Positions 15,019 through 64,000 of a stretch of DNA of 64,000 bases are shown piece by piece. The stretch's first letter is position 1; each line of letters begins with the position of its first letter. Both the position numbers and the translations under genes were made by a program. The notes under the pieces were generated by a model. The model saw only the letters and a program-made list of their open reading frames with translations, made no database searches and had not been told where the DNA came from. The DNA comes from Rhizophagus irregularis (Eukaryota), in assembly GCF_026210795.1 (NCBI RefSeq), contig NC_089435.1, positions 1,674,001-1,738,000 of the forward strand. The letters are read 5' to 3'.

Positions 15019-17040
15019 TCAAGGATAAATTTTACCAAGTTTTTTAATACAAATACCGTAAGGTCTAATATCATCACTTTGTGGACTAATCCAATATTCG
15101 CCAATACTAGTGTTAATTTTATTTAAAGTTTGAGGATTTACTCTATTTTGAAATACAAGACAATAAACTTCGTTATTATGAATAAATTTATTAGCAAATA
15201 AAGCCGCAACATTGATATCAGGAGTAGAATAAATTCCATATCCAAATTTAAATCTTTTTCCCTTTGTAATATCAAAACCAGTTTCAGCAATTGATCTTGC
15301 ATTAAATTTATCTGTTCCATGATAAGAAACAGGCCATTCGTTTGGGTCTGATTCATAACGCCAAGATCCTTTTTTAGCTGCTTTACCTAACCAAGCATTA
15401 TCTCCATATTTATTTAATACTTTAACGGCAATTCGTTTCCAACCGCACGGTCTGCGATATTCGTACGATCCTCTCATAAATTTTATATCATCAACAATAT
15501 TCGTAAAATCACAATCATACATTGGATCAAGGAAATCTGAATCAATAAAATTAATAACTTCATTATTTTGGCCAATCAAATTAATCATTGCATTATTATT
15601 TAATATATTATAATCTAATAATGTTAGATTATCTTTTAATAAAATTCCCGAATAAATCAATCGTTGTTGATTTGATGGAATTCTAGTTTTACTTTCAATA
15701 TGAAATTTTATGACAGAAATTTTTGCGATAATTGGAACATTTTTAATTGGAATTATTTGTCCATTTAACGTGCAAATTCTAATGACTATCATGGTCGGTT
15801 TTTGAGAAATTTGATTAGAATTTTGCTGAATTTGTTTAGAAATTTGTGACTGTTGTGAATGCTGCGATTGAATTTGTTGAGAAAGTTGCGATTGTTGCGA
15901 TTGAATTTGTTGAGAAAGTTGCGATTGTTGCGATTGAATTTGAGAAAATTGCGATTGTTGCGATTGTTGCGAGTGAATTTGTTGAGGAAATTGCGATTGT
16001 TGCGAGTGAATTTGTTGAGAAAATTGCGATTGTTGCGAGTGAATTTGTTGAGGAAATTGCGATTGTTGCGAGTGAATTTGTTGAGGAAATTGCGATTGTT
16101 GCGATTGAATTTGTTGAGGAAATTGCGATTGTTGCGATTGAATTTGTTGAGAAAATTGCGATTGTTGCGATTGAATTTGTTGAGAAAGTTGCGATTGTTG
16201 CGATTGAATTTGTTGAGGAAATTGCGATTGTTGCGATTGAATTTGTTGAGAAAATTGCGATTGTTGCGATTGTTGCGATTGAATTTGTTGAGAAAATTGC
16301 GATTGTTGCGATTGTTGCGACTGAATTTGTTGAGAAAATTGCGATTGTTGCGATTGTTGCGATTGAATTTGTTGAGAAAATTGCGATTGTTGCGATTGTT
16401 GCGATTGAATTTGTTGAGAAAGTTGCGATTGTTGCGATTGTTGCGATTGTTGCGATTGTTGCGAGTGAAGCGCTTGCAATTGTTGAGATTGAATTTGTTG
16501 AGGAAATTGCATCTGAATTTGAGACAATTGCGATTGAATTTGTTGAGGAATGTGCGATTGAGCTAGTTGAAAAACTTGAAATTTTTGGGCAATATGCTGT
16601 TGAAAAGGGAAAATTTGTTGAGAAATTTGTTGAGGAAGTTGAGTAATTTGTTGCTGTAAAGAAGACATCATAAAATTATTCGGGTTTACAATAAAACACT
16701 GCGTATTATTTGCAGAACAAAAATGAGAAGATTCTTGAGTAGAAAAAGAGGTATCAGAAGCAAATTGGGAATCGGAACAATCAATATCATGTTGATTGAT
16801 ATTTTCGTTTCCTTGCGAAGAATAATGAGGATCAAGATCATCATTATTATTTTGTACTTCCCCACCAGCTAAATAAGAACTATGGAGTGATACTGGATTA
16901 ATGTTTTGATAAGTAGCGTTATTTATCCCATTGTGTATTTGATTCAAATACTCTGATTGTGATATAATGGATAAACCGGTCAATGATTTGAGGGCTGCAG
17001 CAACAAGTGATGAATTTGAATTATCAAAATTGTATGCCAT
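15019..17040 (-). CDS. Gln-rich repeat + ubiquitin-like domain + PARP/ART-like (NEURL4-C/Gig2-type) domain protein, about 673 aa
   Basis: Ubl segment IVIRICTLNGQII...IPSNQQRLIYSGILLKDNLTLLDYNI; ART-like motifs WPVSYHGT, GIYSTP, GEYW and IRPYGICIK. First ATG at 17040 (MAYNF). Confidence 0.8.
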   Translation of the reverse strand: MAYNFDNSNSSLVAAALKSLTGLSIISQSEYLNQIHNGINNATYQNINPVSLHSSYLAGGEVQNNNDDLDPHYSSQGNENINQHDIDCSDSQFASDTSFSTQESSHFCSANNTQCFIVNPNNFMMSSLQQQITQLPQQISQQIFPFQQHIAQKFQVFQLAQSHIPQQIQSQLSQIQMQFPQQIQSQQLQALHSQQSQQSQQSQQSQLSQQIQSQQSQQSQFSQQIQSQQSQQSQFSQQIQSQQSQQSQFSQQIQSQQSQQSQFSQQIQSQQSQFPQQIQSQQSQLSQQIQSQQSQFSQQIQSQQSQFPQQIQSQQSQFPQQIHSQQSQFPQQIHSQQSQFSQQIHSQQSQFPQQIHSQQSQQSQFSQIQSQQSQLSQQIQSQQSQLSQQIQSQHSQQSQISKQIQQNSNQISQKPTMIVIRICTLNGQIIPIKNVPIIAKISVIKFHIESKTRIPSNQQRLIYSGILLKDNLTLLDYNILNNNAMINLIGQNNEVINFIDSDFLDPMYDCDFTNIVDDIKFMRGSYEYRRPCGWKRIAVKVLNKYGDNAWLGKAAKKGSWRYESDPNEWPVSYHGTDKFNARSIAETGFDITKGKRFKFGYGIYSTPDINVAALFANKFIHNNEVYCLVFQNRVNPQTLNKINTSIGEYWISPQSDDIRPYGICIKKLGKIYP
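15846..16560 (-). repeat. Coding minisatellite encoding (SQQ)n SQF[S/P]QQI[Q/H] units
   Basis: Units of 33-42 bp built from 9-bp TCGCAACAA subunits. Confidence 0.9.
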
Positions 17041-18837
17041 CTTTGATATATTTTTCTTTAAAAAAGAAAAATATATCAAAGATGGCATACAGAGTTTATA
17101 TAAAAATTTTCCCCCATTCAACATTCAAATATTACTTAATTTAGAAAACTCAATGAAGGTGATCATTTTCATTAGAATTAAATTTTTAATTTATTAACAT
17201 AAAAATTTATTAAATTTTTATAAAAAAAATTCTTGACTTTTCGTCCAAACGGCACACCGTAGTCTTATATACATTGTAATGTGCTTAAAATAACCATATA
17301 TCATATATCTATTATATAATATAAAACATATATATTAGAAACTATTATAAAAGTGATATCCTCGATTTTATCAGTTTGGAAATTAAAACAATGCGGTACA
17401 AGCGGTAGTTCTTTCAAGGATTTCCAAATTAAGAAGTTCATTCAAAGTGGGATTGGATTAGAACTGCAAAAACACAAAGAAAAAAAAAATTAACGTTTAT
17501 TAAACTAAACATAGAAAATAGATTTTTTTGGTTAGATCTATTAATTTCAAATGAAGTAATATACAGTAATATTGTTTGTTAATAAATCTGTATATCTGCT
17601 ATTCATGCAGGAGTTCATTTAAAAAAAAACGGTTAAAAAATTATTTATTATTAAAAAAATGTTGTGTTACAAATAATCTGTTGATACTTTTGAATAATTT
17701 CTTTCAAATTGGCGATACATTGTAAAGCTTCCTTTTAGATAGTGTTTCAAAGAGTCATATTTTCTTTGAATTCATTTGATGGCAGATTATCTATTATATT
17801 TCAAACGGACTAAAAGTCAAACAAAACTACGATTACAATAAAATAAAGTAACAATCAAAGTATTAAGCACTCGGAGCGAAAGTTGTGAAAGAACCGATTT
17901 TCAACTCCGGTGACTCCGATTCACTGATATTCTCTGAAGCAATAATAATAAAAATTATAATTTCCGCAAAAATAAGTTTGAAGTATTCTCAGCAGGATAG
18001 CCAAAATAACGATATTTGAAGCTTAAACAATGAATAGATCCAGCTTATAAGAGTTCAATACTATATTTGCACTCCATAAGTGCATACCTCTCTAAGTGTA
18101 CACTTCCGCTATTTTTTTACTAAATGGTTTTGCAGACAAATTTGACTGCAATTTTTTAAAAAAAAATAAATAATTATTGAGGAATTTTCTCAATATTGAT
18201 CAGTTTCGCCAGCCATCAGATTAATTTATTACATTTATTTTTTATCATTAAAGACTTTAAAATTCTAATAATCAAAAAGATTTCTAATTTTTATTTTCTT
18301 GTAAGCTCTATTTAAAGTCGTCAAAATTCCACTTCTAGATCCAAAAAAATTACCATATTGAAGCTACAAATTTTCTTAAAATACTCAACAAAATCACCGC
18401 CAAAGATGAAGAATATTCAAAGAAATACATTTTTAGAAGTAAAAATTTTGACTAATATTTTTCAATATCTGGTTAAAAAACGAAGGTCATCATTATGTGT
18501 ATATATAAGTTGGTTTAGCTATTCAAAATTTTTTTTAAAAATTCTTTGATTCTTGATTCTGATTATTGAAAGTAAGCGAGAATTTATAATATAAGTTTCA
18601 TAAATTTTATTTAATACATTATTCGATACTAAATATACTAAATCCACCAAAATAAACTCGCTTTTTAACTATAACTAAAAAAATTTTTTTTTTTTTATAA
18701 AAAAAATTAATAAAAAAAAAATAATGTTTTATGAAATTAATTACATAATATTTAAATCTTATAATTACATATAAAATTTTGTGCATCACTTCTAAACTAA
18801 CTATATACATAGTTTTTACCAATTAACAGTTTCAAGC

Positions 18838-31907: not shown

Positions 31908-32222
31908 GACGACCATAGCGTCGCCTCCAAAAAATGGTAGCCGGATTATTTTGCCGGTTCTTTAGTGTTAGGGTTGGGATTAGGGTTGGGATTAGGGTAA
32001 GGGGATTAGGATTAGGATTAGGGTAAGGGATTAGGGTTAGGAATTCGTCACATAATGTCACACCCTAACGTTTCTTTAATTTTATAATCATTCTGAGGAC
32101 TTAGAAAATTTTTTATACGTAAAGTACTAAATGTCACGTATTATTTATCACCTCTCAATAATATATGTAACCCGGCAAATTAGAACCGGCTACCATTTTT
32201 TGGAGGCGACGCTAGGGTGGTT
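31908..32222. mobile_element. Mutator-like MITE containing telomere-like repeats
   Basis: TIR core TAGCGTCGCCTCCAAAAAATGGTAGCCGG (perfect 29 bp), 10-bp TSD GACTGTGCCT (31898-31907, 32223-32232), and degenerate TTAGGG repeats at about 31967-32041. Confidence 0.85.
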
Positions 32223-34049: not shown

Positions 34050-35532
34050 ATGATAATAAATTTTTTACCGAAATTATCTCAAAATTTACTTGATATTTTA
34101 AATGATGAAGAATATTATGATGTTACTATTGAAGTTGGTAACGGCCCTCATATAAAGATATTTCGTGCTCATATGGTTATCTTACATTATCGTTCCACTT
34201 ATTTACGAAGAATTTTGTCTACCAATAAAAATAAAAATGATGGAACTTTGGTTCATATAAAATTATCAAATATTTTACCTGAAATTTTTCAAATAATTTT
34301 GAGGTAAGAGAATTTGAATTTAAATTACAAAATTTAAATCACAAAATGATTATATAATAATGTAATACTTTTTTATTTCAGATATATTTATGGTGGTAGA
34401 ATTTCTTTGGAGGAATATGATACTTCTGATATAATTAACGTCTTGCTTGCTGCGAGTGAACTTGGTCTCCAAGAACTAATCACTTATGCACAATCCTTTT
34501 TAATTAAAACTAAGGCAGATTGGATGGAATCAAATTTTAATTTGATATATCAAACGAGCTTTGAGAATGATTCTTTCTTGGAACTACAAAGATTTTGTAT
34601 TGATTTATCGTCTAAAGAGCCAGATAAAATATTCAATTCACCAAATTTTTCCTCAATTCCAGAAAATCTTTTAGTTTCACTTATTCAAAGTGATAATCTT
34701 CAAATGAGCGAAATTCAAGTATGGGAATATGTGCTTAAATGGGGACTTGTCCAAAGTCCAGAACTCCCTTCTGATACTACAAATTTCTCAAAAGAAGTTT
34801 TCAAAACTTTAAAGAATAATGTGCGTCAATGTATTCCATTTATCAGATTTCATAATTTATCTTCTGAAGAATTTTCGGATAAAGTATTACCTTACAGGAA
34901 GATTTTACCAAAGGATTTATTATATATATGAAGACTTATTAAAATATTTTATGAATCCTAATAAAAAATCAAAACCTCGTATGACTGCTAATGAAATTTA
35001 TATTAATTCCAAAATTATTACAATTCAACATGCTGAATTAATCTCAAAATGGATCGATAGATTAGAAATTACAGATGAGATAAAAAATGTGTACAAATTC
35101 CAATTGTTACTTCGTGGATCTCGTGATGGATTTACAACTAAAAAATTTCATGAAATCTGTGATAATCAAACTAGTACTGTAGCAATTATTAAAGTGAAAT
35201 ATAGTAATGAAATTCTTGGAGGATATAATCCAATTGCATGGGATTCTGATGAATTTGATGATGAACTTGATGAAGGAATTTATGGTACTACTAAAGATAG
35301 CTTTATATTCTCTTTTGAGAATAGTGTCGATATTAAAGTTATATTTTAAGTCGTGTAAAAACTGAAAAATATGCCACGTATAACTATAGTGGTTTTGGTC
35401 CATCATAACGAGGATCTTAATTTGCATGGAGACACCGGTTGTTGTAATGGTGTTGATTATGAAAAGCAGATCAGAGAATCTGCTGATATATTTTATATAG
35501 AAGAATATGAAGTATTTCAACTTATAAACTAA
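34050..35532 (+). pseudogene. BTB/POZ-BACK-TLDc domain gene, frameshifted; intron 34304-34381
   Basis: BTB motifs YDVTIEVG..FRAHMVIL, BACK motif SEIQVWEYVLKWG, TLDc motifs LLLRGSRDGF..FHEICD..ILGGYNP..EEYEVFQ. Frameshifts near 34925 and 35340. Confidence 0.85.
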
Positions 35533-39273: not shown

Positions 39274-41250
39274 TTATCCGGTATCCCGTGATTTTTTCCA
39301 GTTTTTTTATAATTGTCGATCACTATGATAAATCATGTATTAAGCAATAAAATCTTTATATTGTATATTAGGCGTTATTTATATACTACAATATACATCA
39401 ATTGTTATAAATTGAACAATTATTATAGTAATATTTATTTATAATAATTTTTTTTCTTTTTTTCTTTTTATTATTATTAATATCTATATTTTTGTTAGTA
39501 GAAGTTTCCTGTAATGGCCGCTTGTTCTTATTTTCCAATAATTCCGAAGCCTTGCTAAATCCAGATAATACAATTTCTCCATGTTGCATATTGTCATCAC
39601 ATTGCACTTCATTATCATACTGTATTTCAGTTTTTGAGTTGATATCTGACGTATCTTCAGTTAACCTTTGCATAACCGAACCTAGAATCTTCCTTTTCTT
39701 TTCTTTTGTTACTTTAAGGTAATTACGCACTCCTGCAGATGAATTATGACCTGAAATTGCCATTGCTTCAACTTCTTCATTTCCGGCATCAAATATTGAT
39801 TGTATTGCCGTATCTCTTCCTGAATGGTTAGAAATATTTCTTCCGGAAATGTCAATACCGCACGCAATACAGATTTCACGAAACATCCCTCTAATCCGTT
39901 TTTCACCAAGTGCCCAATCATAATACCATTTACCTTTAGAAATTGCTAGTAAATAATATTAAAATTATAGATTTAATGTAATACAATAAAATAAATTAAT
40001 TTACCTGCTGTATTTGTTGAAATTCCTAAGTAAAATTCTTTGGTTATACAATCTGAGGGTCTCATTGAAATATATTTGCGAATATCTGCATTGGGTTCAG
40101 CTTTACCTTTAACATCTGATGGAAATGGAATTTCAAATGTATATTGGTTACTTTCCAACCCTCCTTGATCATTTTTTTGATGAAATTTCTTAAAAATAAA
40201 TCCATTATCTGTATCTTCAAATTGATTAATTAGTAAATTATAATGTTCACCACCTCGTGGACATCCTAATAAACATATCCATAAAAATACTCTTCTAAGT
40301 AATCCTTCAGGATTATTAAAAGACACAGCATCATGATCTAAAATAATTTTTAATTCGTCATTTGTCAAGCCTTCATGTGGCTTTGCCGCGCCTATTCCTA
40401 ACTTTTTCATCTCTTTTAATGTGCCATCAAGAGTAGCATGTAACTTTGGAAAATGATTTTTATCTAAAAGGTTATAGTTCCATTGTGGAATGGTGTCTTT
40501 AAGATGGCGGCTTATTGAAGCAACTGCATTTTTAAGTGAAGCTCTTGAATATCGCTCTCCAGATTTTGTTCTTATACCGTAAATAAACTCGCACATTTCT
40601 TTTTCAATTTGTTGATTAGAGGAAAGTGATTCTAATGTATATTTATAGCCTACATCTTCATGATTTCGCCAAGAATTTAAAATATTAATCCATTTTTTTG
40701 TACATTTAACTGTATTTTGTGGTACATGACTTTCTTGAACCTTTAAAAGTTCCTTAGCTGTAGGTTTAAAATAAGACTAAAAATTTATTAGTTTTTAAAA
40801 TATAATGATTTTAATAACAATCTGTATTTATAAAATACTTACTTCTTTTATATTCTCCATTATTTTACATTGAAATAATGTGCATAAAGAAATTATTGAA
40901 AGAGGTTAAAGAGGTTTATGTAAAAAAATATTAAAGGAGGTTATATGTAAAGAAATTATAAAAGAGGTTCGTGTAAAAAAAAAATTAAAAGAGGTTACAC
41001 GTAAAAGAGATTATGTGAAGAGAAAAAAAGCTTAAAAAAGCTTAAATAAATGATTTGTAATCACATAATCACAGGATACCGGATAAATCACTTATTCGGC
41101 ACTTCGAACCGAATAACTAACGCCACCTAAAGGTAGCTTATTATATTGGGAATCAAATTTGATCAGTTGATCGCGGAGCCCGGATCAACCAATCAAATTT
41201 GATTTACCCAATATAACAGTTATTCGGCACTTCGTGCCGAATAACTATTA
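39274..41250 (-). mobile_element. Crypton-type tyrosine recombinase transposon
   Basis: The recombinase gene is bracketed by a 20-bp inverted repeat (39274-39293 and 41067-41086, one mismatch), with hairpin-rich DNA at 41091-41250. Boundaries are approximate. Confidence 0.7.
39398..40860 (-). CDS. Crypton tyrosine recombinase (DUF3504/ZMYM-like region + catalytic domain), 445 aa, 3 exons
   Basis: Exons 40860-40843, 40776-40005 and 39945-39398 total 1338 nt and are open. Catalytic-type residues lie in PRGGEH, NHSGR, SGH and VRNY. Confidence 0.85.
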
Positions 41251-41489
41251 ATTATTGATCAGTCATTCGCATTCTTGATCAACGATCACCTGGCTCTGAT
41301 ATAGGTGTAATTCCTATATTGGTCAAAATATTTAAATAAGATTAAAATAAAGTCAATATACTTACGAATCTTGGTTTTCCATTCTTCGGAAGTCCACCCA
41401 CAATACAAACTAAATACAATCCGCTATTGAAATAAGTATAACAAATTTTACATTATTCATTTTTAATTTATGTATTAGAAATGGGTTTA

Positions 41490-41722
41490 TATACTTATTA
41501 TTTGATAATTTATAAAAAAAAAAGATTTATTTAAATTACAAACTAAGAAATTTGTAAAATATTTACTACTCTAGTCCTAGTGTTTAAATAATTCTAAGAA
41601 GAGAATACTTATATTTAATATTTGATAAAATATAAAAAAAAGGAATTATTTAAATTACAAACTAAGAATCTTTAAAATATTTTACTACTCTAGCCTTAGT
41701 GTTTAAATAAATCTAAAAAGAG
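41490..41722. repeat. About 117-bp tandem duplication downstream of the kinase stop
   Basis: TTTAAATTACAAACTAAGAA...TACTACTCTAG..TAGTGTTTAAATAA occurs twice. Confidence 0.7.
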
Positions 41723-41908
41723 TAAAGTGAAGAACAATTTTTTGTTAAATGCATGATATCAAATATTACAAAAAAAAAAGCTATATCTTTTTAAAACACA
41801 AATAATTAGTTAATTTTCATTTGTTTTAATATCTAAATATTAAATAAATAAATTAATTAATTTGTAAATTAATTTATTTTATATTATACCAGCTAAATTA
41901 TATACAAT

Positions 41909-44900
41909 TTACATACCTAATTTCAGCATACATTCATTCAAGTCTTCGCTTACTAGCATTTCACTCACTTGTACAGTAGTTTGTGAATTTTTACTTTCAA
42001 GAATTTCATTCAATTGTTTACTAGTAAAATTAAGTAAGCGACTTGTATAGCAAGCCTGTGAGTGAGATTCAGTAGCAAGATTGTTATGCCCAATTGGTGC
42101 ATTTATAAATTCCATAATATTGCATTTTAATTCTTCATTAATATCTTCAATTTTTTTACCACGAGGAAGAGAAGTCCATTCAAGAATAATTTCTAAAACT
42201 TCCTTAGAAGATGGTCTTTTTAATGGATCTTCATCCCAACATTTTTTCATCAAATCAACATAGCATTGTGGAGTATTTTCAATAATTTCAGGACGTTCAC
42301 CTTCACAAATACTTAAACTAAGTTGAATATCATGTGCTCTATTATTAAATGGTGGTATTCCAGATGTAAATTCCCACATAATCATAGAAAAACTATATAT
42401 ATCACTAGCTGGAGTATAAGGTTTGCCTCTTAATACTTCAGGTGCCATAAATGGTACAACACCATAAATATTATGTTCTTCCAATAATGATTTTACAGGT
42501 TGACATAATCCTAAATCACTAATAAAAATTTTACTCTCATCATGATTTAAAATATTGCCATCATGAAAATCATGATGGATAAGATTTTGATTATGTATAT
42601 TTTTAAGTCCAGAAATAATTTCATACAACATGCATAATTTTTGATCCCAACCACTTTCAACTATTCTTGTTAAGTTTCCTCTTAAATTACCTTTGTTTGC
42701 ATAATCCATTACCGCCATATATTTCAAAGTATCTGGATTTTTTGTAAATCCATAAAAATAAATAATTTCATATGAATCTAAACAACTTTCATGATATTTC
42801 CACTATAAAAAATAATAATATATTAATATAAGTACATTATAATTTAAATTAAAAAAATAGTAATATACTATCATACTTCATTTAAAAATTCATTTAAATT
42901 TTCATTTAAATTATCATGACATTTAAGAATTACTTCTCTATCTTTATTATTATACGACCAAATGGCTTTGTATATAGTACCAAATCCTCCTTTATTAAGA
43001 TATTCAACATTTTTAAAATTATTATAAGGAATCCGTATTAACTTTTTTTCAAAAATAAATTCATCCATGATTTTGTTTTCACTTTGTCCAAATCTACAGT
43101 ATAAATTTAAATAATTAAAATTATATAAAAGTTTATAATAAAATTTACACTAAAATTTAAGATTAAAATTAACACTTACTCTAAAATTTAAATAGGAATT
43201 TGAGATAATTTATGTCTTAGTTTTTGTATAAATATATAATAATAAGCTATATTTCATAACTTACCAACTAAAGTAATAGAAATTTTAAAAGAATACAGTT
43301 AGCAAATAAATATCTAGCAATAGAATTAAATAAATAACGTACCATCTATAAAATAATTTTTTAAATAAAGAAATTTAGTTAGTTTAAATTATATGTAAAT
43401 ATTATAACAATAAGTTAATAATAGAATTAAATAAATAACTTACTCCCTATATTATTTAAATAATTTTTTAAATAAAGAAATTTAGTTAGTTTAAATTATA
43501 TGTAAATATTATAACAATAAGTAATAATAGAATTAAATAAATAACTTATGACTTACCAACTAAAATAAATTACAAAATAATTTTTTAAATAAAGAAATTT
43601 AGTTAGTTTAAATTATGTGTAAATATTATAACAATAAGTAATAATAGAATTAAATAAATAACTTACGTTCTATTAGTAAATAAATAAAGAAATTAGATAG
43701 TTTAAATTATATGTAAATATTATAACAATAAGTAATAATAGAATTAAATAAATAACTTACTCCCTATATTATTTAAATAATTTTTTAAATAAAGAAATTT
43801 AGTTAGTTTAAATTATATGTAAATATTATAACAATAAGTAATAATAGAATTAAATAAATAACGTACGATCTATAAAATAATTTTTTAAATAATAAAATTT
43901 AGTTAGTTTAAATTATATGTAAATATTATAACAATAAGTAATAATAGAATTAAATAAATAACTTACTCCCTATATTATTTAAATAATTTTTTAAATAAAG
44001 AAATTTAGTTAGTTTAAATTATATGTAAATATTATAACAATAAGGAATAATAGAAATAAATAAATAACTTACTCCCTATATTATATAAATAATTTTTTAA
44101 ATAAAGAAATTTAGTTAGTTTAAATTATATGTAAATATTATAACAATAAGTTAATAATAGAATTAAATAAATAACTTACTCCCTATATTATTTAAATAAT
44201 TTTTAAATAAAGAAATTTAGTTAGTTTAAATTATATGTAAATATTATAACAATAAGTAATAATAGAATTAAATAAATAACTTACGAACTATATTATTTAA
44301 ATAATTTTTTAAATAAAGAAATTTAGTTGGTTTAAATTATATGTAAATATTATAACAATAAGTAATAATAGAATTAAATAAATAACGTACCATCTATAAA
44401 ATAATTTTTTAAATAAAGAAATTTAGTTAGTTTAAATTATATGTAAATATTATAACAATAAGTAATAATAGAATTAAATAAATAACTTACGAACTATATT
44501 ATTTAAATAATTTTTTAAATAAAGAAATTTAGTTAGTTTAAATTATATGTAAATATTATAACAATAAGTAATAATAGAATTAAATAAATAACTTACGAAC
44601 TACATTATTTTAAATAAAGAAATTTAGTTAGTTTAAATTATATGTAAATATTATAACAATAAGTAATATTAGAATTAAATAAATAACTTACGAACTATAT
44701 TATTTAAATAATTTTTTTAAATAAAGAAATTTAGTTAGTTTAAATTATATGTAAATATTATAACAATAAGTAATAATAGAATTAAATAAATAACGTACCA
44801 CCTATAAAATAATTTTTTAAATAAAGAAATTTAGTTAGTTTAAATTATATGTAAATATTATAACAATAAGTAATAATAGAATTAATAAATAACTTACGAA

Positions 44901-47900
44901 CTATATTATTTAAATAATTTTTTAAATAAAGAAATTTAGTTAGTTTAAATTATATGTAAATATTATAACAATAAGTAATAATAGAATTAAATAAATAACT
45001 TACTCCCTATATTATTTAAATAATTTTTTAAATAAAGAAATTTAGTTGGTTTAAATTATATGTAAATATTATAACAATAAGTAATAATAGAATTAAATAA
45101 ATAACTTACTCGCTATATTATTTAAATAATTTTTTAAATAAAGAAATTTAGTTAGTTTAAATTATATGTAAATATTATAACAATAAGTAATAATAGAATT
45201 AAATAAATAACGTACCATCTATAAAATAATTTTTTAAATAAAGAAATTTAGTTAGTTTAAATTATATGTAAATATTATAACAATAAGTAATATTAGAATT
45301 AAATAAATAACGTACCATCTATAAAATAATTTTTTAAATAAAGAAATTTAATTAGTTTAAATTATATGTAAATATTATAACAATAAGTAATATTAGAATT
45401 AAATAAATAACTTACAAGCTATTATTTAAATAATTTTTTAAATAAAGAAATTTAGTTAGTTTAAATTATATGTAAATATTATAACAATAAGTAATAATAG
45501 AATTATATAAATAACTTATGACTTACCAACTAAAATAAATTACAAAATAATTTTTTAAATAAAGAAATTTAGTTAGTTTAAATTATACAGTATGTAAATA
45601 TTATAACAATAAGTAATAATAGAATTAAATAAATAACTTACAAGCTATTATTTAAATAATTTTTTAAATTTAGAAATTTGGTTAGTTTAAATTATATAAT
45701 ATTATAACAATAAGTAATAATAGAATTAAATAAATAACTTACTCCCTATATTATTTAAATAATTTTTTAAATAAAGAAATTTAGCGTTTATTATATGTAA
45801 ATATTATAACAATAAGTAATAATAGAATTAAATAAATAACTTACTCCCTATATTATTTAAATAATTTTTTAAATAAAGAAATTTAGTTAGTTTAAATTAT
45901 ATGTAAATATTATAACAATAAGTAATAATAGAATAAAATAAATAAATTTCTACAAGCTATTATTTAAATAATTTTTTAAATAAAGAAATTTAGTTAGTTT
46001 AAATTATATGTAAATATTATAATAATAAGTAATAATAATAGAATTAAATAAATAACTTACTCCCTATATTATTTAAATAATTTTTTAAATAAAGAAATTT
46101 AGTTAGTTTAAATTATATAAATATTATAACAATAAGTAATAATAGAATTAAAATAAATAATCTTACTCCCTATAATATTAAATAATTTTTTAAATAAAGA
46201 AATTTAGTTAGTTTAAATTATATAAATATTATAACAATAAGTAATAATAGAATTAAATAAATAACTTACGAACTATATTATTGGGGCCACTTTAAATAAA
46301 GAAATTTAGTTAGTTGAATATATATAAATATTATAACAATAAGTAATAATAGAATTAAATAAATAACGTACCATCTGTAAAATAATTTTTTAAATAAAGA
46401 AATTTAGTTAGTTTAAATTATATGTAAATATTATAACAATAAGTAATAATAGAATTAAATAAATAACGTACAATCTATAAAATAATTTTTAAATAAAGAA
46501 ATTTAGTTAGTTTAAATTATATGTAAATATTATAACAATAAGTAATAATAGAATTAAATAAATAACGTACCATCTATAAAATAATTTTTTAAATAAAGAA
46601 ATTGTTAGTTTAAATTATGTGTAAATATTATAACAATAAGTAATAATAGAATTAAATAAATAACTTACGTTCTATTAAATAAATAAAGAAATTAGATAGT
46701 TTAAATTATATGTAAATATTATAACAATAAGTAATAATAGAATTAAATAAATAACTTACGTTCTATTAAATAAATAAAGAAATTAGATAGTTTAAATTAT
46801 ATGTAAATATTATAACAATAAGTAATAATAGAATTAAATAAATAACTTACTCCCTATATTATTTAAATAATTTTTTAAATAAAGAAATTTAGTTAGTTTA
46901 AATTATATGTAAATATTATAACAATAAGTAATAATAGAATTAAATAAATAACTTACTCCCTATATTATTTAAATAATTTTTTAAATAAAGAAATTTAGTT
47001 AGTTTAAATTATATAATATTATAACAATAAGTAATAATAGAATTAAATAAATAACTTACTCCCTATATTATTTAAATGATTTTTTAAATAAAGAAATTTA
47101 GTTAGTTTAAATTATATGTAAATATTATAACAATAAGTAATAATAGAATTAAATAAATAACTTACGAACTATATTATTTAAATAATTTTTTAAATAAAGA
47201 AAATTAGTTAGTTTAAATTATATGTAAATATTATAACAATAAGTAATAATAGAATTAAATAAATAACGTACCACCTATAAAATAATTTTTTAAATAAAGA
47301 AATTTAGTTAGTTTAAATTATATGTAAATATTATAACAATAAGTAATAATAGAATTAAATAAATAACTTACGTTCTATTAAATAAATAAAGAAATTAGAT
47401 AGTTTAAATTATATGTAAATATTATAACAATAAGTAATAATAGAATTAAATAAATAACTTACGTTCTATTAAATAAAGAAGAAATTAGATAATTTAAATT
47501 ATATGTAAATATTATAACAATAAGTAATAATAGAATTAAATAAATAACTTACGTTCTATTAAATAAATAAAGAAATTAGATAATTTAAATTATATGTAAA
47601 TATTATAACAATAAGTAATAATAGAATTAAATAAATAACGTACCATCTATAAAATAATTTTTTAAATAAAGAAATTTAGTTAACTTAATTGTATTACAAT
47701 AGAAATATAGACATCATATAACTTACACCCTGAATTATTATTAATTTTTAATTAGTTAAATATAGATATAAATATAATAGAAAGATATTCACTATAAATT
47801 GAATATATTACTTACAATCTATTTATTTTAAATTAAGAATATAATTAGTTAAATTATATTAAAATATTAATAAATAAGTCTAATATTAAATATAGCATTC

Positions 47901-48196
47901 TTAAGTATTATAACTTACCAGCTGTAATAATATTTAAACATAGAATTTAGTTATTTGATTATTATGTAAAATAAATAGTAAAAAACTAAAATTTAAATAA
48001 CTGATAACTTACAAACTTATAGTATTATTAACCATAAATAAATTATTTAGTTACATAGAATATAATGATAATAATTAATTTTTAATATAATTTTTATATA
48101 ATATGATAGTTAGTTTATATTTGCAAAATTGTTTAAAAATTTGATGGGATAATTCTAATTTTATTTTATAGCTGTATGATTACCTTTATGATCCAT
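41909..48196 (-). CDS. Tyrosine-kinase-like protein kinase (predicted 422 aa, 52 exons) whose N-terminus is assembled from microexons
   Basis: The kinase exons 43093-42877 and 42802-41909 are solid (KGGFGTIYKA, VILK, HHDFHDGN, DLG, APE, DIYSF). The upstream model is inferred from splice signals: exon 48196-48184 (ATGGATCATAAAG), 48 three-nt exons and a 1-nt exon at 43180. Total 1269 nt, in frame, no stops. Confidence 0.75.
43180..48015 (-). repeat. Tandem array of ~80-115-bp intron units separated by 3-nt microexons (homogeneous core about 43320-47680)
   Basis: Every core unit reads YAG-NNN-GTAAGT or GTACGT on the minus strand (two donors are GTAGAA and GTAAGA), and most carry AACTAAC about 35-40 nt before the AG. 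Confidence 0.9.
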
Positions 48197-50444
48197 TACT
48201 ATATCAAATTCTTCCTAATTGGAAAGATAAAGTGAATATGTATATCCTTTTTTCTTTTTTTTTATTTATCTTAAACGCCTTATTAGTACAGATATTAAAA
48301 TGGTAATAATATTTATGCAAAACGCATTGTATACAAAATGTTGATCGCAAGTACAAGTTGTATGACGCATGTCCGGAATGCATGTTGTAAGACCTAAGTC
48401 CGTATAATAATACGTTTGCCACCTTAGGACTTAACAAAATAATACTTTATTAATAATATAAATAAATACAATAATATGCTTAGTAGTTTAACAATACTAT
48501 AAAATAATAACTAAATATTTATCCAAATATTTCCCTAAATTCGTAACCTGATTTTCCACAATGTCGCCTTTATACAAAGAAACTTCTGCGCATCCCTTTT
48601 TATTAGTTTAACTGCAAAATCTGAAAATATCCTTATCTCATATAACTTTATACTCATAAAAACTACAAGTATTAGTACTTGTTATTTTTCATGTTTTTGA
48701 AATTTCCATTTTTCTTCGTTTTTGATCTTCAAAACCCTTTCCTTAAATGTTAATATCCTAATTATAGATTCTTTCATCATGATCTACAAATCAATCACAT
48801 GATTTCCAATCATCTGATAATCATCTGACTTAAATCTTTCATCTTGGACGTTACATTTCAATATTAAATACTAAAAATTTTAGAAAAAAAAAAAAAACTC
48901 TTCCCCCTTTCCGTCTGATTTCATAGAAATCCGCAGTATACACAAATTTTTTATTTTTTAAAATTTTTAACCCTTTACGTTGGTATAAAAGGAGTGAGGA
49001 CCACTTGGTGGCCTCGACAGAAAGTTCTCCTTAATACACCCCGTTGCTTTTGGAGAGTATTTTATAATAGTATACCAAATATTTTTATCATTATAACACC
49101 TTTGAATATTTTACCTTCCTTTGGGAAAAAAAACCCCTCTGACGCTTCTGCTTCTAAATCGCACGTGACCGTTCCTGATAAGGATGGTTACAACAAAAAA
49201 TCTTTACACAAAATACGTAATATTTTTGCTTATTCATTTCAAACTCACAAGCTTAATCCATATATAGTTAACGATACACGAGGTAGTGGTACCTTGTATA
49301 ACACCAAAAAAAGTAGATACTTCCTTATGGAGTTACACCCAAATGCTGATCTTTGTTTAACAAAGAAAAATTCTTTCAACGTCTACACCAATGATATTGA
49401 TATGCATAATGATCATCAGAGGATCTTCAACTCAACTAGTAAAAAAGTTAATCTTAATTACTTGATAGGGACATATCTCGCTTTTATATTCACAGGTCGA
49501 ACAGATGTCATTGTCGCAAAATTTGCCTGGAATTTTTCTGGCAAATTGAGAATTATCCCGGTAAATTGGGGTAAATTGTGTTACAATTTTGGGATAATGG
49601 AGGACTTACAATTTGGCAAATTTTGTCAAAATGGCGGAATTCCTACAGAATTCCTAATTCAAATATTGAGAAATTTTTCAGTAAATTATCATTAATTGTG
49701 GGAAATTTTAGGTAAATTTTTAGTAATTTTATGTAAATTGTAGTGAATTTAGTCAAATTTTTAGTAATTTTATGTAAACGTAATGTGAATTTAGTCAAAT
49801 TTTTAGTAATTTTATGTAAACGTAATGCAAATTGTGGTGAATTTAGTCAAATTTTTAGTAATTTTATGCAAACGTAATGCAAATTGTGGTAAATTGTAAT
49901 GTATTTTTAGTAATGTTATATAAATTGTTGAAAATTTAGGTGAATTTTTCAGCAATGTTGTGCAAACGTAATACAAATTGTGGAAAATTGTGGTGAATTT
50001 TGCATTTTTTCGGTAAATGTTAGCTAAACTTTTGATAATTTAGTGAAATTTAGGATAATTTTGGACAATTGAGTGAAAAATGTTTTACTGATTTTGTACA
50101 ATTGAGTGTAAACAGTATAAACGCAACATTTTCGGAGACAATTTAGTGAAATTTTGCAATAATTTCGGACAATTGAGTGAAATTTTGCAATAATTTCGGA
50201 CAATTGAGTGAAATTTAGTAATAATTTTAAACAATTTAGTGCAAATACCATGACAATTTAAAACACTGGTTTAATAATTTTACATAATTTATTACAATAT
50301 TATTTATTAACAAATGCACAATTATTATTTAACGATGAGAATCTATATTAATCTATATTCATCAGATATCCAATGATCCATGGGTAATCCGCACATCTAA
50401 TTCATTCATGTATCTCCGATGCCAAAGTAGAAGCTGGTGAAAAC

Positions 50445-58800: not shown

Positions 58801-58935
58801 AACCCTAATCATAAATTGCTCTGATTCTTTGACGAAGCCTATTTTCATACCGATTTTGATAGTAATAAGATGGGAAACATTTTAGAATTTATTAATTGAA
58901 GAAAAAAATTTTTAGGTTATTAGTACACAACCAGT

Positions 58936-61521
58936 ATGGCAACAAGCAATCGAACTTGTGATAGATGTGGAAAGGCTTTTGCAACTCCACAAAAGCTTCG
59001 TGGGCATCAAAATAGAAAGTTTCTATGCAAGCCTGCAGCTAAACCTCAGGATCCCACACCTGAGATTGTACAATTGCAACCACAACTGGAGCAATTCCAG
59101 GATCCCACACCTGAAATTGTACAATTGCAATCACAACCGGAGCAACTCCAGGATCCCACACCTGAAGTTATCCCAGCTCATGCAGAGAAAACTCCTAACT
59201 TAACAATTGATGAACTAGCAAAATGGTTAGCAGAACCTGGTGATTACAATCAATATACTCCACGAAAAAGAAGAGCTCCCCAAACAGATAATGAATGGTT
59301 TGCTTATATGCAAGGAGATTATAGAGGAAGATGGTGTGATATTCAATTTGTAAAAAGAGTTCATGATCCTGCACGTTCACATAAATCTCTAAAACATAAG
59401 ACAGTATGGCAAGCTAATCTTAAACCAAATGTTAGAGATATACCATATTTTCCAAGTATAATAGCTGATACCCGTCAGAAAATAACAGAAATTCTTGAGA
59501 GTGAACTTGAAGAAAAAGGGCAAATCAAATCAGCTATCACTATATTGGCTACATATACAGATAATAGTGGAACAAATAAACAAGTTTATCATAGAGGAGT
59601 CATGCGTGTACTTCTTTTAAAGAATGATATAGATGATCATTTAACAAAATCAGCAGTGGATATCACGGATAAAATTGTCAAATTTATGAAAGGAGGGTCT
59701 GGTTGGAAAATTGTTAGTATAGATATATTAACTATTGAGACGTATACTTACCGCCGAGCAGAAGGAAGCTCATACATTCTTACACCTAAGGCACTTGCAA
59801 ATAAGAAGTGCACTATCAATCCGGATAACAAAGATCTCATAGATCCGGACACAGGCTTGCTCTCTGAAAAATGTTTGCAAGGGGCTTTAGGTGCTTACTT
59901 TGCATATAAAGATGGGCATACACAAAAACTTGAGCGAATCTTTCGGGCAGAAAAATTTAAGCCATACTTGGAACAAGTCAATCTCAATGCAATTCCCATG
60001 CCCACTCCTGTTTATCCACGCATATTTAGCAAGATTGAGGACCTCAATCCTGAGATCTCCATTAATGTATGGGAATGGGAGGAGAAAACTGGTATTCCAA
60101 AACCTGTTATTGCAAGTAAGAATTACAACCGTCAACATATCATTCACCTCATGGCCCTTACAGATATTACAAAATCAGATGAAGGAAAGTATGGTCAGAA
60201 GAATCACTTCCTTTGGATTAAGAATCCTGATGCTTTAATATACAAAGATACATCCCACAAGGGAAAGAAGCATCTTTGCAATCGGTGCTTCCAAAGCTTT
60301 CCATTGTCTAAATCTTTAACTAATCATCAGGAATGGTGTTTTGGATTAGGTGAGACACCACAAAGAGTTGAGTTACCAGTTAAAGGTAAGAATGATTTTG
60401 AGGAGTTTAAGAATTTTAACCGAACAATGTATGCTCCATGTGTAATTATTGCAGACTTTGAGGCTGATAACAGAAAGTGTAATGAAAACTATGGTGGAAA
60501 TATGCATAAGATTATGGAGCAAAAGGCTAATAGCTTCTGCTATATGGTCCACTGGATTGAAACTGATGAGACATGGGGGCCATTCTTATACCGAGGACCA
60601 AATGCAACAGAAGAGTTTGTCAGCAGACTTGATAAAGAATTAAGAAGGATTAATGATGTTTTAGAAGTAAAAGTAGAACGTATTATAACAGAGGAAGCTA
60701 AAAAGGAATTCACTGAAGCAGTTAGTTGTTGGATATGTAATGGAAATTTCAATCAGGGCATGCAAGACAAAAAAGTTTGGGATCACTGCCACATCACAGG
60801 TAAGTTTCGTGGGGCTGCTCATAATGCATGCAATCTTAAGCTTCAAATCGAAGCATGGAAGACTCCAATTCCTGTAGTATTTCATAACTTCCGTGGCTAT
60901 GACTTCCATTTAGTTTGTGAATCTGTTGGACGATCAATTGGAGCATATCAAATCAAAGTTATTGCAGAGACATTCGAACGTTACAAATCCATGAAGGTAG
61001 GGCAATTCAAGTACATTGATAGCATGCAGTTCATGTCCTCCAGTCTTGCAAACCTTGCAAAGAATTTAGGGACAGATAAACCCCTCACAAAGCGACACTT
61101 CAAAAACTTCTCGTCTGAACATATTGACTTAATCACACGTAAGGGGGTTTATCCTTATGAATATATTGATTCACATGATCGTTTCAAGGAGACAGAACTC
61201 CCATCTATTCATGACTTTCATAGTACTCTTGGAGGAAAGATCACTCAGGATAATTACAAACATGCACAAAAAGTTTGGAAGGAATTTGGCTGCAAGAACT
61301 TGGGCGAGTATCATGACCTTTATCTTAAGACTGATGTTCTTCTCCTAGCAGATGTCTGGACAAAGTTTCGACAGACAGCGATGCATCATTATGGACTTGA
61401 CCCAAGTCATTATGTCTCTGCTCCAGCACTTTCATGGGATGGCATGCTTAAGATGACTGGAGTCAAAATAGAGCTATTCACTGACATGACCATGCATGAT
61501 TTTACTGAAAAGGCTAAACGT
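58936..61521 (+). pseudogene. Polinton/Maverick-type protein-primed family B DNA polymerase, truncated before the polymerase domain
   Basis: N-terminal C2H2 finger (CDRC..H..), a second Zn finger, exonuclease motifs ADFE, HNFRGYD and YLKTDV, endonuclease-VII-like DHCHITGKFRGAAHNACN, and RKGVYPYEY. Homology stops at EKAKR, where RGG and the polymerase motifs should follow. Confidence 0.85.
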
Positions 61522-64000
61522 TGTAAACGGTCGAATATCAAGCATGAGAATATGATAAAATTCAATCACCAAATGTAATTGTCAAATATTAAGAACGAAC
61601 AAACTAATTATGAATTGGCGTGGATGGATAAATAATTAGCCAAAAAGGATAAACATTTAGAAAGAGTAATGATCTGCATGATGTAATATTTATTGAATGA
61701 TTGACAAAGAACCAATAGGATAAATAGAGTCGATCAATTGGGGCTTAGCAATCTTTAACAATAAGAACGATAAGAAAGAATAATTATAAGCCACAAAAGA
61801 TAGATTATAAGTAAAACATATAAAGCGGATTAAAAGAACATATAAAATAATGTCAGAAAGATTAAAGAACGTAAAATAATATAAAAGATAATATAAAAAG
61901 ATAATACAAAGATACTATAAAAGATAATATATATATATAAAAGATAGCATATTAAAAGATAGCGTATTTAAAATATAGATAGTATATTAGGAAGATAGTT
62001 CAAAGATAATATGTAAAAAGAACATAAAAGATAGTATATAGATAGAATAGAAAGTAGCGTAAAATTTGTATAAATAGAGAACAGAATTCAAAGTAATTCC
62101 ATAGTTCTCATCCACAGAACTCAATAAAAATATAAGTTTTATTTAATTATTTGTTAATGAAGTTTAATGTTAATTAAAGGTAATAGGTTCGCCCTAAACT
62201 TTAATTAATGTTCGCTTAATTAATTTTAATTAAACAAATGAAAATTTTAAGATGAATTAAATATATGTTTTTGAAAAGTAATAATTCGTAGCGAGAGCTA
62301 TCGAAGTTTGAAATTAAAGGTAAAAGTGGATATAATTTGGGGAAAATTTAGAGAAGTTAATTTTATTTTATATCGTTCAACGTTTTATATTACTAACGCT
62401 ATTTATTTTGTGAACCAAGAATGTTGTTGTATGTTGTTCGTTAATTTTGTTGTTTGTTAATTATGTTGTTGAGTAATCGCTTGTTCGTTTATTTGTTTGT
62501 TTGTTTGTTTGTTTGTTTGTTTGTTTGTTTGTTCGTTCGACCATGAGAAAGCCCGTTCGATGTGGTAACTCTGTAAATTGATGACAGGGGGAATTGGGAG
62601 ATCTCATATGGTGCATGCTCGCAAGAAAGGAAATGATCATCATCACATGATTATTATTATAATGAATATGAAAATTTAATTTCGTTAGTAAGTCACTGAT
62701 AGGTATTATTAATCAATATTTTATTTTAGAATTTATTTTTAGATTTCAGGTTTTGACGAGTTCAAAAGGAACCAATAAATCAATGAGGATTTAACGTGTT
62801 AAAAACTTGAAAAGGTGAAAGATTGGGGTTTGAAGTTGTGCAAGTAATCATTTAATCGATAGAAAGCACAAGAATATTTCTTTCGGGAATAAAGTACCTG
62901 AGAAATTTCATAAGGAGATGGGGAAGCGAAAGATGAATTTTAGAATAAAGATTAATAATGGGAGAACACCAATGTATTATCTGGGGTTCATCTGTGTGGT
63001 ATGGGTTATCTCTGAGTTTGAATTTTGGATAAATGCTCGAGATTGGAAAACTTTTATTCTTCGACATTAAAGATTATAACGTATGGGTTACATCAAATCT
63101 GGATACCCAGCTCAATAATGCGCAAATTGCTTTGGGGACAGGGAATGAAAATTGTAAAGACACCTACTATCAAGAAATATTGAAAGAATAAAATAGGACA
63201 AACCTGTAAACTATCATGCTTTTACCCAATGGGAAAAAGATAGAGATAAGCCCAGTATAGGTCCACCAATTTGAGGAAAGATAAGTTGGTTTAGATGAGT
63301 TTTATGGATAGCTGATGACTTTTGAAACTGGATTTTGGAAGGTTAGATTCACCCGTTAAGAGACGAGTCGGCCAACGAAGGAGGAGAAGACGGATACGTT
63401 GTATTGTTACAGGTCCTAGGCTACATTTCAGATGAGGGTTCCTGGTGTAGTGTGCTAGGTCACGTTCTCATTACAATGTTCTGTTAAAAGAAGATAACAT
63501 AGAAGGATATTTACACATTAACGAGCCGTATAATGAACATTACGTGCAGTATTTAATAATAGAGTAAAATCCGAAAAGAAGGACATTTATTTAAAAGAAG
63601 AACATTTGTTTGAAAAAGAATATTTATTTGAAAAGGAACATTTATTTGAAAAGAAGGATATTTATCTGAAAAGAACGACATTTTGTGTGTTATAGATTAA
63701 TTTATATAATATAGAATATATAGTAAGAAGGATTTATGTGGACGATAAGAAAGATTGAAAATTTGCAAACTTTAAAAGTTATGAAAATTTTGGAGTTTGT
63801 GATATGTGATATGTGAAATTATGAATCTCGGTGATAGAAGATAAATTTTAGAATGTGATATTATAGATCTCGGTGACAAAAGATAAACTTTGTGGAGCAG
63901 TAAAAATTAATAGTAAAATATGGCATAGTAAATATATAGAACCGAAAGATGGAATCTAAAGATTGAAAGAAGCAATCTACTTAAAGATAAAAGAATGTTT
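61522..64000 (+). mobile_element. Probable LTR retrotransposon (LTR and leader) inserted into the pPolB gene
   Basis: Abrupt start TGTAAAC exactly at the pPolB break. Candidate LTR ends TTACA at 63091 or 63475. No gag/pol visible in the window. Confidence 0.5.
62482..62537. repeat. (TTTG)n microsatellite
   Basis: Directly visible. Confidence 0.9.

Follow-up and report, generated by a model that had tools for sequence, protein, structure and literature searches.

Here we analyzed a window of 64,000 nucleotides from Rhizophagus irregularis (NCBI RefSeq assembly GCF_026210795.1, contig NC_089435.1, forward-strand positions 1,674,001 to 1,738,000; coordinates below count from the first letter of this stretch), in which 48 exon-like triplets lie in tandem on the minus strand between a short candidate upstream exon and the gene of a tyrosine-kinase-like kinase. 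It is probable that the triplets serve as coding exons for a variable N-terminal peptide of the spliced kinase, which would be varied through the copying and exchange of whole units. The array has a strictly regular anatomy, its units fall into cassette classes, its triplets change in excess of the introns around them, the kinase exons are spliced, and the same layout is found in many related kinase loci.

The array occupies positions 43265-48015, and its core is a tandem repeat of 4.4 kb (43320-47680) with a unit of ~106 bp and a GC content of 11-14%. On the minus strand each unit comprises a GT-AG intron with precisely three bases after it, and AG-NNN-GT triplets on this strand number 48 in the whole array, 43 of these in the core, arranged as follows:

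47727..48015, minus strand: four 3-nt exons (TTT, CTG, ATT and GGT) with unrepeated introns, upstream of the core.
43320..47680, minus strand: repeat core with 43 3-nt exons, near-identical GT-AG introns of ~87-112 nt and five acceptor classes.
43265..43267, minus strand: last 3-nt exon, TTG, outside the core; the last triplet of two related loci, L006 and L010, is also TTG.

The tally given in the original prediction was exact, both for the repeated triplets (GGA 13, ATG 7, TTC 7, AAC 6, CTT 3, TTG 3, ATT 2 and GTG 2) and for those present once (TTT, CTG, GGT, CGA and ATC). As a control for chance occurrence, the pattern AG + 3 nt + GTA[AC]GT was found 46 times on the minus strand of the array, 0 times on its plus strand and once on both strands of the remaining ~59 kb of the window, and the same pattern with any other exon length from 1 to 8 nt gave 0 matches in the array. 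All 47 introns between triplets have the form GT..YAG, with the donors GTAAGT (34), GTACGT (11), GTAAGA (1) and GTAGAA (1), and in 42 of them the 3' end is preceded, at a distance of 10-60 nt, by a CTAAY motif. An Rfam search of positions 41000-50000 at the gathering score returned 0 matches. We also observed a GC-rich patch in the acceptor tail of one TTC unit (46273-46290), unlike every other unit.

Triplets and introns are tightly associated, since the core contains 10 combinations of triplet and haplotype (acceptor plus donor), where shuffling gives a mean of 22.3 (p=5e-5). It had been proposed that each triplet is linked to an intron haplotype of its own; there is indeed one haplotype per triplet, but the 10 core triplets use only 5 acceptor classes, so that haplotypes are shared. 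Class A comprises GGA, TTC and CGA (21 units), class B comprises ATG, GTG, ATC and ATT (11 units), and AAC, TTG and CTT form one class each (6, 2 and 3 units). The particulars proposed for these classes were borne out: all 11 core units of class B combine a GTACGT donor with the B-type acceptor, the AAC units are shorter (spacing 90-94 bp), both core TTG units contain an extra donor-side insert, and the GGA/TTC/CGA units have an acceptor in common, present as exact AATAATATAG in 18 of 21. Runs of like units had been taken as a trace of duplication, and adjacent identical pairs are in fact overrepresented (12 against 6.5 expected, p=0.015), but the suggestion does not extend to longer words, as repeated words of 2, 3 and 4 units, which would mark higher-order block duplication, are not significant (p=0.45, 0.12 and 0.08).

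One of the conditions under which the linkage proposal was to be given up was that the triplet columns vary no more than the intron; they are clearly more variable, diversity reaching 0.60-0.73 at the three positions of the triplet and averaging 0.029 over 95 intron columns in 42 introns. The predicted concentration of substitutions at the triplet was also evident inside class A (21 inner units) and class B (9 inner units), where a minimum of 7 changes at 6 triplet sites compares with 29 at 190 intron sites, a 7.6-fold excess (p=1e-4). Between GGA and TTC each of the three bases is different, and the introns flanking them differ at 1 majority column per side. In the one haplotype compared, this pattern fits what unit-wise duplication and exchange would be expected to leave.

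The exons and introns into which the array would be spliced, from the 5' end of the gene, are:

48335..48370, minus strand: possible earlier coding exon of 12 codons with a weak donor, speculative, resembling the start of model P0009.
48184..48214, minus strand: candidate upstream exon, from sequence alone, with an in-frame ATG at 48196, ending in phase 1; candidate acceptor at 48215.
43180..43180, minus strand: probable 1-nt bridge exon, from the reading frame, one contig joint and 1- or 4-nt bridges in 8 related loci.
42877..43093, minus strand: kinase N-lobe exon (Gly-rich loop, Lys and helix-C Glu) with an internal Met at 43068.
41917..42802, minus strand: kinase C-lobe exon, PF07714 (E 2.8e-33).
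41833..41916, minus strand: last intron, with a short final exon below 41833, from contig pieces in runs X1 and X2 and the C-terminus of public protein P0192.

Judged by its domains and closest matches, the gene is a Rhizophagus tyrosine-kinase-like kinase. The PF07714 domain scores 115.8 bits against a curated cut-off of 23.1; the C-lobe exon matches kinase families only, the N-lobe exon matches none, and no NACHT or ankyrin domain was found. Among the best 120 matches, all those named by organism are from Rhizophagus (top identity 96%), and the top sequence matches with solved structures are a chain labelled EGFR, RIPK1 and MLT/ZAK. The catalytic residues are present by eye (Gly loop, Lys, Glu, catalytic Asp and Asn, Mg-binding Asp and APE), with HHD instead of HRD and DLG instead of DFG. 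The R. irregularis public protein OCT59_027178 (P0192) matches the N-lobe exon at 100% identity over 89%; its model begins at the internal Met 43068 and contains no microexon. This model (window 41909-43068), which also omits a large central part of the C-lobe exon that the RNA contigs cover without a joint, looks like a mis-prediction. It misses the array, and other public models appear to read such triplets in phase 0.

Joining the ATG at 48196, the 48 triplets, base 43180 and the kinase exons gives an open frame of 422 residues, and the frame that leaves out the 1-nt exon meets a stop at residue 70. Since the candidate upstream exon ends after the first base of a codon, the triplets would be read in phase 1, and with all of them included the encoded peptide would have 49 residues, 13 of them Arg, and a net charge of +10. 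Codons then straddle neighboring units, so that phase 1 gives the 10 core triplets access to 19 amino acids, against 8 in phase 0.

From 24 runs listed, four (X1, X2, X4 and X5) were aligned to positions 41700-43340; these are assembled contigs, and the RNA status of the runs is guessed or unknown. The intron 42803-42876 is spliced out in 4 of 4, and the kinase exons are spliced in all of these guessed RNA runs. Contigs with zero mismatches stop matching at the acceptor 43093 and continue with extra 5' letters (94 in X1, 161 in X2, 171 in X5 and 22 in X4). Inclusion of every triplet predicts 145 letters ahead of the upstream exon, with which these lengths are compatible but of which they are no proof. 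In run X4 a contig (depth 4.3) leads directly from 43093 to 43180; the 86 nt passed over have CT..AC ends, so that a donor lies at 43179, in support of the 1-nt exon. Phase 1, as the original prediction had it, agrees with this joint at 43180, with the bookkeeping of the frame and with the avoidance of stops in relatives described below. We also considered that the triplets are read in phase 0 with an exon of 5 nt at 43176-43180, as some paralogue models imply; this is disfavored by the donor at 43179 and by the upstream exon, which from ATG 48196 ends in phase 1, the case against it standing on one contig plus the family pattern.

The same layout was sought in related kinases through a metagenome scan, of which the best 80 of 179 related loci were retained, and 40 were examined in which the match starts near the N-lobe exon and at least 100 nt lie upstream. 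We found 3-nt exons in 28 of these loci, only a bridge exon on short flanks in 3 and neither in 9. An exon with a Cys motif occupies the position of the array in 6 of the 40, namely 5 of the 9 without small exons plus L053, in which positions 1-436 hold both a 3-nt exon and the Cys-motif exon in one kinase locus; L053 is possibly an intermediate between the two N-terminal types. Leaving out L020, L040 and L060 as repeats, 85 of the 95 small exons in relatives measure 3 nt. Among the 10 others, 8 are bridges of 1 or 4 nt in last place, each preceding an exon with one leftover base, and the remaining two (in L056) are probably false hits. The bridges of these 8 loci lie at the same position as 43180 of the window, all inside one tree group of 10 rows. 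Of 23 loci ending in a triplet, 19 were assigned two leftover bases and 4 one, by an assignment that favored non-zero leftovers and was hence biased against phase 0; when the alternatives were listed, 18 of 31 loci had an acceptor leaving two bases at the same place, 29 nt ahead of the anchor. The bridge and the two-leftover-base arrangements both mean phase 1.

This phase is also the one in which stops are avoided. At 58 junctions from 19 loci, phase 1 gave 0 stops against 4.09 expected (p=0.004) and phase 2 gave 12; with three more similar loci dropped, phase 1 still gave 0 of 54 (p=0.005), the loci being related and their junctions not fully independent. Differences between neighboring units in the relatives affect 118 of 174 triplet bases (68%) against 351 of 2218 intron bases (16%). 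The layout persists among kinases only about 50-70% identical to the query, and a midpoint-rooted tree places the arrays in two groups (93/70 and 89/93, neither starred), which would fit either one origin of the array or two. Between loci, the array introns are conserved about like ordinary introns (0.79-0.81 against 0.78 in L006), and special conservation of the array intron is unsupported except in L005 (0.91 against 0.70 for the kinase intron).

Among 47 public models from Rhizophagus whose N-terminus has at least 20 residues, 10 contain strings rich in G, I, L and M, against a background of 1 in 436 blocks, and these strings are a likely trace of arrays read in phase 0. In the upstream 300 nt of L036 and L040, the last unit and its intron are near-identical by eye in kinases that are not tree sisters, which would reflect either exchange between paralogues or a chimeric assembly. 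At 7200-8500 of L049 we observed a related kinase with a Cys motif upstream instead of microexons and with repeats that we presume to be Sel1-like.

The manner in which such an array could operate may be outlined in four steps. First, the short introns would be removed singly, one after another, as in fungi with short introns, where splicing proceeds intron by intron; if each is removed alone, a 3-nt exon needs no exon definition. Second, each residue would take its first base from one unit and its other two from the next, and with all exons 3 nt long and in phase 1, any unit could be copied, lost or skipped without a frameshift; stops are created by 1 of 48 single-unit skips and 29 of 1176 block skips. 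Third, unequal crossing-over together with conversion would homogenize the intron bodies and reshuffle a few old cassette types. Fourth, the peptide would serve as a specificity or docking segment ahead of the kinase, a role that is quite conceivable though short of probable, suggested by analogy with the nank genes of Tuber, discussed below, and by the position of the Cys-motif exon in other family members. It is more doubtful whether the split-codon cassettes make these proteins combinatorial receptor-diversity kinases for self/non-self recognition of hyphae, microbes or hosts, through recombination and exon skipping; arbuscular mycorrhizal fungi would then possess a large kinase repertoire that has been overlooked, and recombination between nuclei or alleles would build novel residues out of an alphabet of ten letters, within a symbiont that is multinucleate and largely clonal.

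Several observations weigh against the interpretation of the triplets as coding exons of a variable peptide. No triplet-bearing read or contig was seen in the four aligned runs, the extra 5' letters of the contigs could stem from upstream exons with the array skipped, and the 1-nt bridge depends on one contig of depth 4.3 from a run of unknown kind. Likewise, in the protein collections searched, no transcript-derived protein with a phase-1 string was recognized among the matches listed (44 of 150 in one of the searches). The in-frame Met 43068 could start the kinase without the peptide. The open frame is weak evidence, as 46% of shuffled triplet orders are also free of stops, and was for this reason dropped as a sign of selection within the window; the perfect retention of GT and AG in the core is not significant either (2.0 hits expected, P0=0.135). 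The 7.6-fold excess is built on minimum change counts, and 3 of its 7 changes are the linked GGA/TTC difference counted separately. Finally, decayed units with a lost GT or AG were noted by eye in L005 (30-240) and in the last units of L050, L065 and L066.

These decayed units would also fit triplets that are real coding exons of a tolerated, unstructured leader, in which the array grows neutrally in tandem and selection only purges stops. Symmetric 3-nt units never break the frame, so that such growth is possible; the very uneven use of cassettes and their runs would follow the same course, splicing may constrain the introns while the triplet is free, which alone raises the ratio of triplet to intron change, and between loci the conservation of the array introns is about that of ordinary introns, as in L006. 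We nevertheless regard this explanation as unlikely, given the excess of triplet change inside cassette classes, the replacement of all three bases between GGA and TTC within near-constant flanks, and the maintenance of the layout across such divergent kinases.

A still less probable explanation makes the array a minisatellite that does not code for protein, or an untranslated string at the 5' end, and has the kinase start at Met 43068, as it does in OCT59_027178 and in many other family models, with which the lack of observed triplet inclusion in the contigs would agree. Untranslated sequence, however, gives no reason for the avoidance of stops in phase 1 only or for bridges of 3n+1 exactly where the next exon needs them, and the Met is missing from the position equivalent to 43068 in several relatives. 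Least probable, although compatible with the coding of a variable peptide, is that alternative splicing within one nucleus is the main source of variation, giving many peptides per allele: near-identical introns may let donors pair with further acceptors, few skips create stops, CTAAY is missing from 5 of 47 introns, the 168-nt intron predicted in the gene means that a skip of ~200 nt is not far out of range, and there is the published precedent of Tuber nank in the portions consulted (PMC4986451, PMC13449251, PMC10197012), but no isoform was observed, and the contigs extend 161 and 171 letters beyond the acceptor unbroken; provided that these letters belong to the array, heavy skipping near its 3' end could be expected to interrupt the contigs.

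Elsewhere in the window, a frame with long Gln/Ser repeats and a ubiquitin domain lies at 15019-17124, a short interstitial telomere-like TTAGGG/TTAGGA repeat at 31968-32042, and BACK and TLD domains in two overlapping frames at 34350-35349, reflecting a frameshift or an unseen intron. Two frames at 39398-40776, one of which was scanned and gave no Pfam match, look like tyrosine recombinases and are presumably Crypton-like. The 884-codon frame at 58924-61578, with matches to a C2H2 finger and endonuclease VII, may be a Polinton-like polymerase.

What the expanded kinases do in mycorrhizal fungi, and how these fungi discriminate self from non-self, are open questions to which the array brings a variable segment that can be counted, on a kinase subfamily whose gene models leave this segment out or seem to put it in the wrong frame. 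The N-terminal part of the kinase is likely encoded in pieces of three bases and may be open to rapid reshuffling. The locus further offers a natural case in which to see how the spliceosome copes with dozens of 3-nt exons plus a 1-nt exon in series.

Among known systems, the micro-exon genes of Schistosoma contain strings of small symmetric exons, mostly longer than 3 nt, and encode secreted proteins varied by skipping; the strings of small symmetric exons are common to both, and in Rhizophagus they are uniformly 3 nt long and precede a kinase. Codon-sized microexons in Tuber nank genes were reportedly described by Iotti et al. in 2012. In the portions of the literature consulted, the nank (NACHT-ankyrin) NLRs of Tuber melanosporum have codon-sized 3-bp microexons and are diversified by alternative splicing (PMC4986451, PMC13449251, PMC10197012). 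As far as these portions go, the two systems share tens of 3-nt exons, an expanded gene family, a mycorrhizal fungal host and an interpretation in which a protein segment is diversified. In contrast to nank, the Rhizophagus gene encodes a kinase, belongs to the Glomeromycota and bears an N-terminal, phase-1, homogenized minisatellite with cassette classes; alternative splicing is the mechanism reported for nank, and no isoform was observed for the Rhizophagus array. The Rhizophagus gene probably works like the Tuber arrays and is no nank gene.

An expansion of tyrosine-kinase-like kinases in R. irregularis is described in the part consulted of PMC4219462, and the present gene belongs to this same family (PF07714), of which the matching public model lacks microexons and several relatives carry the Cys-motif exon. 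According to the sections seen of PMC13449251, fungal NLRs contain highly conserved internal repeats, which resemble the array in having near-identical units reshuffled by recombination with variation at few positions; unlike those repeats, which are coding and tens of residues long, the unit of the array is ~97% intron and adds one residue. Our literature search, which covered few subscription papers, found no publication on arrays of one-codon exons in mycorrhizal fungi or their kinases, and the main text of preprint 10.1101/2022.10.19.511543, in the portion available, contains 0 occurrences of 'microexon' and 0 of 'kinase'. With the present locus, arrays of one-codon exons reach beyond an ascomycete NLR family into a distant lineage of fungi and another protein class, in the form of a family-wide, phase-1 array on Glomeromycota-type kinases, which is here a homogenized cassette repeat of 43 units.

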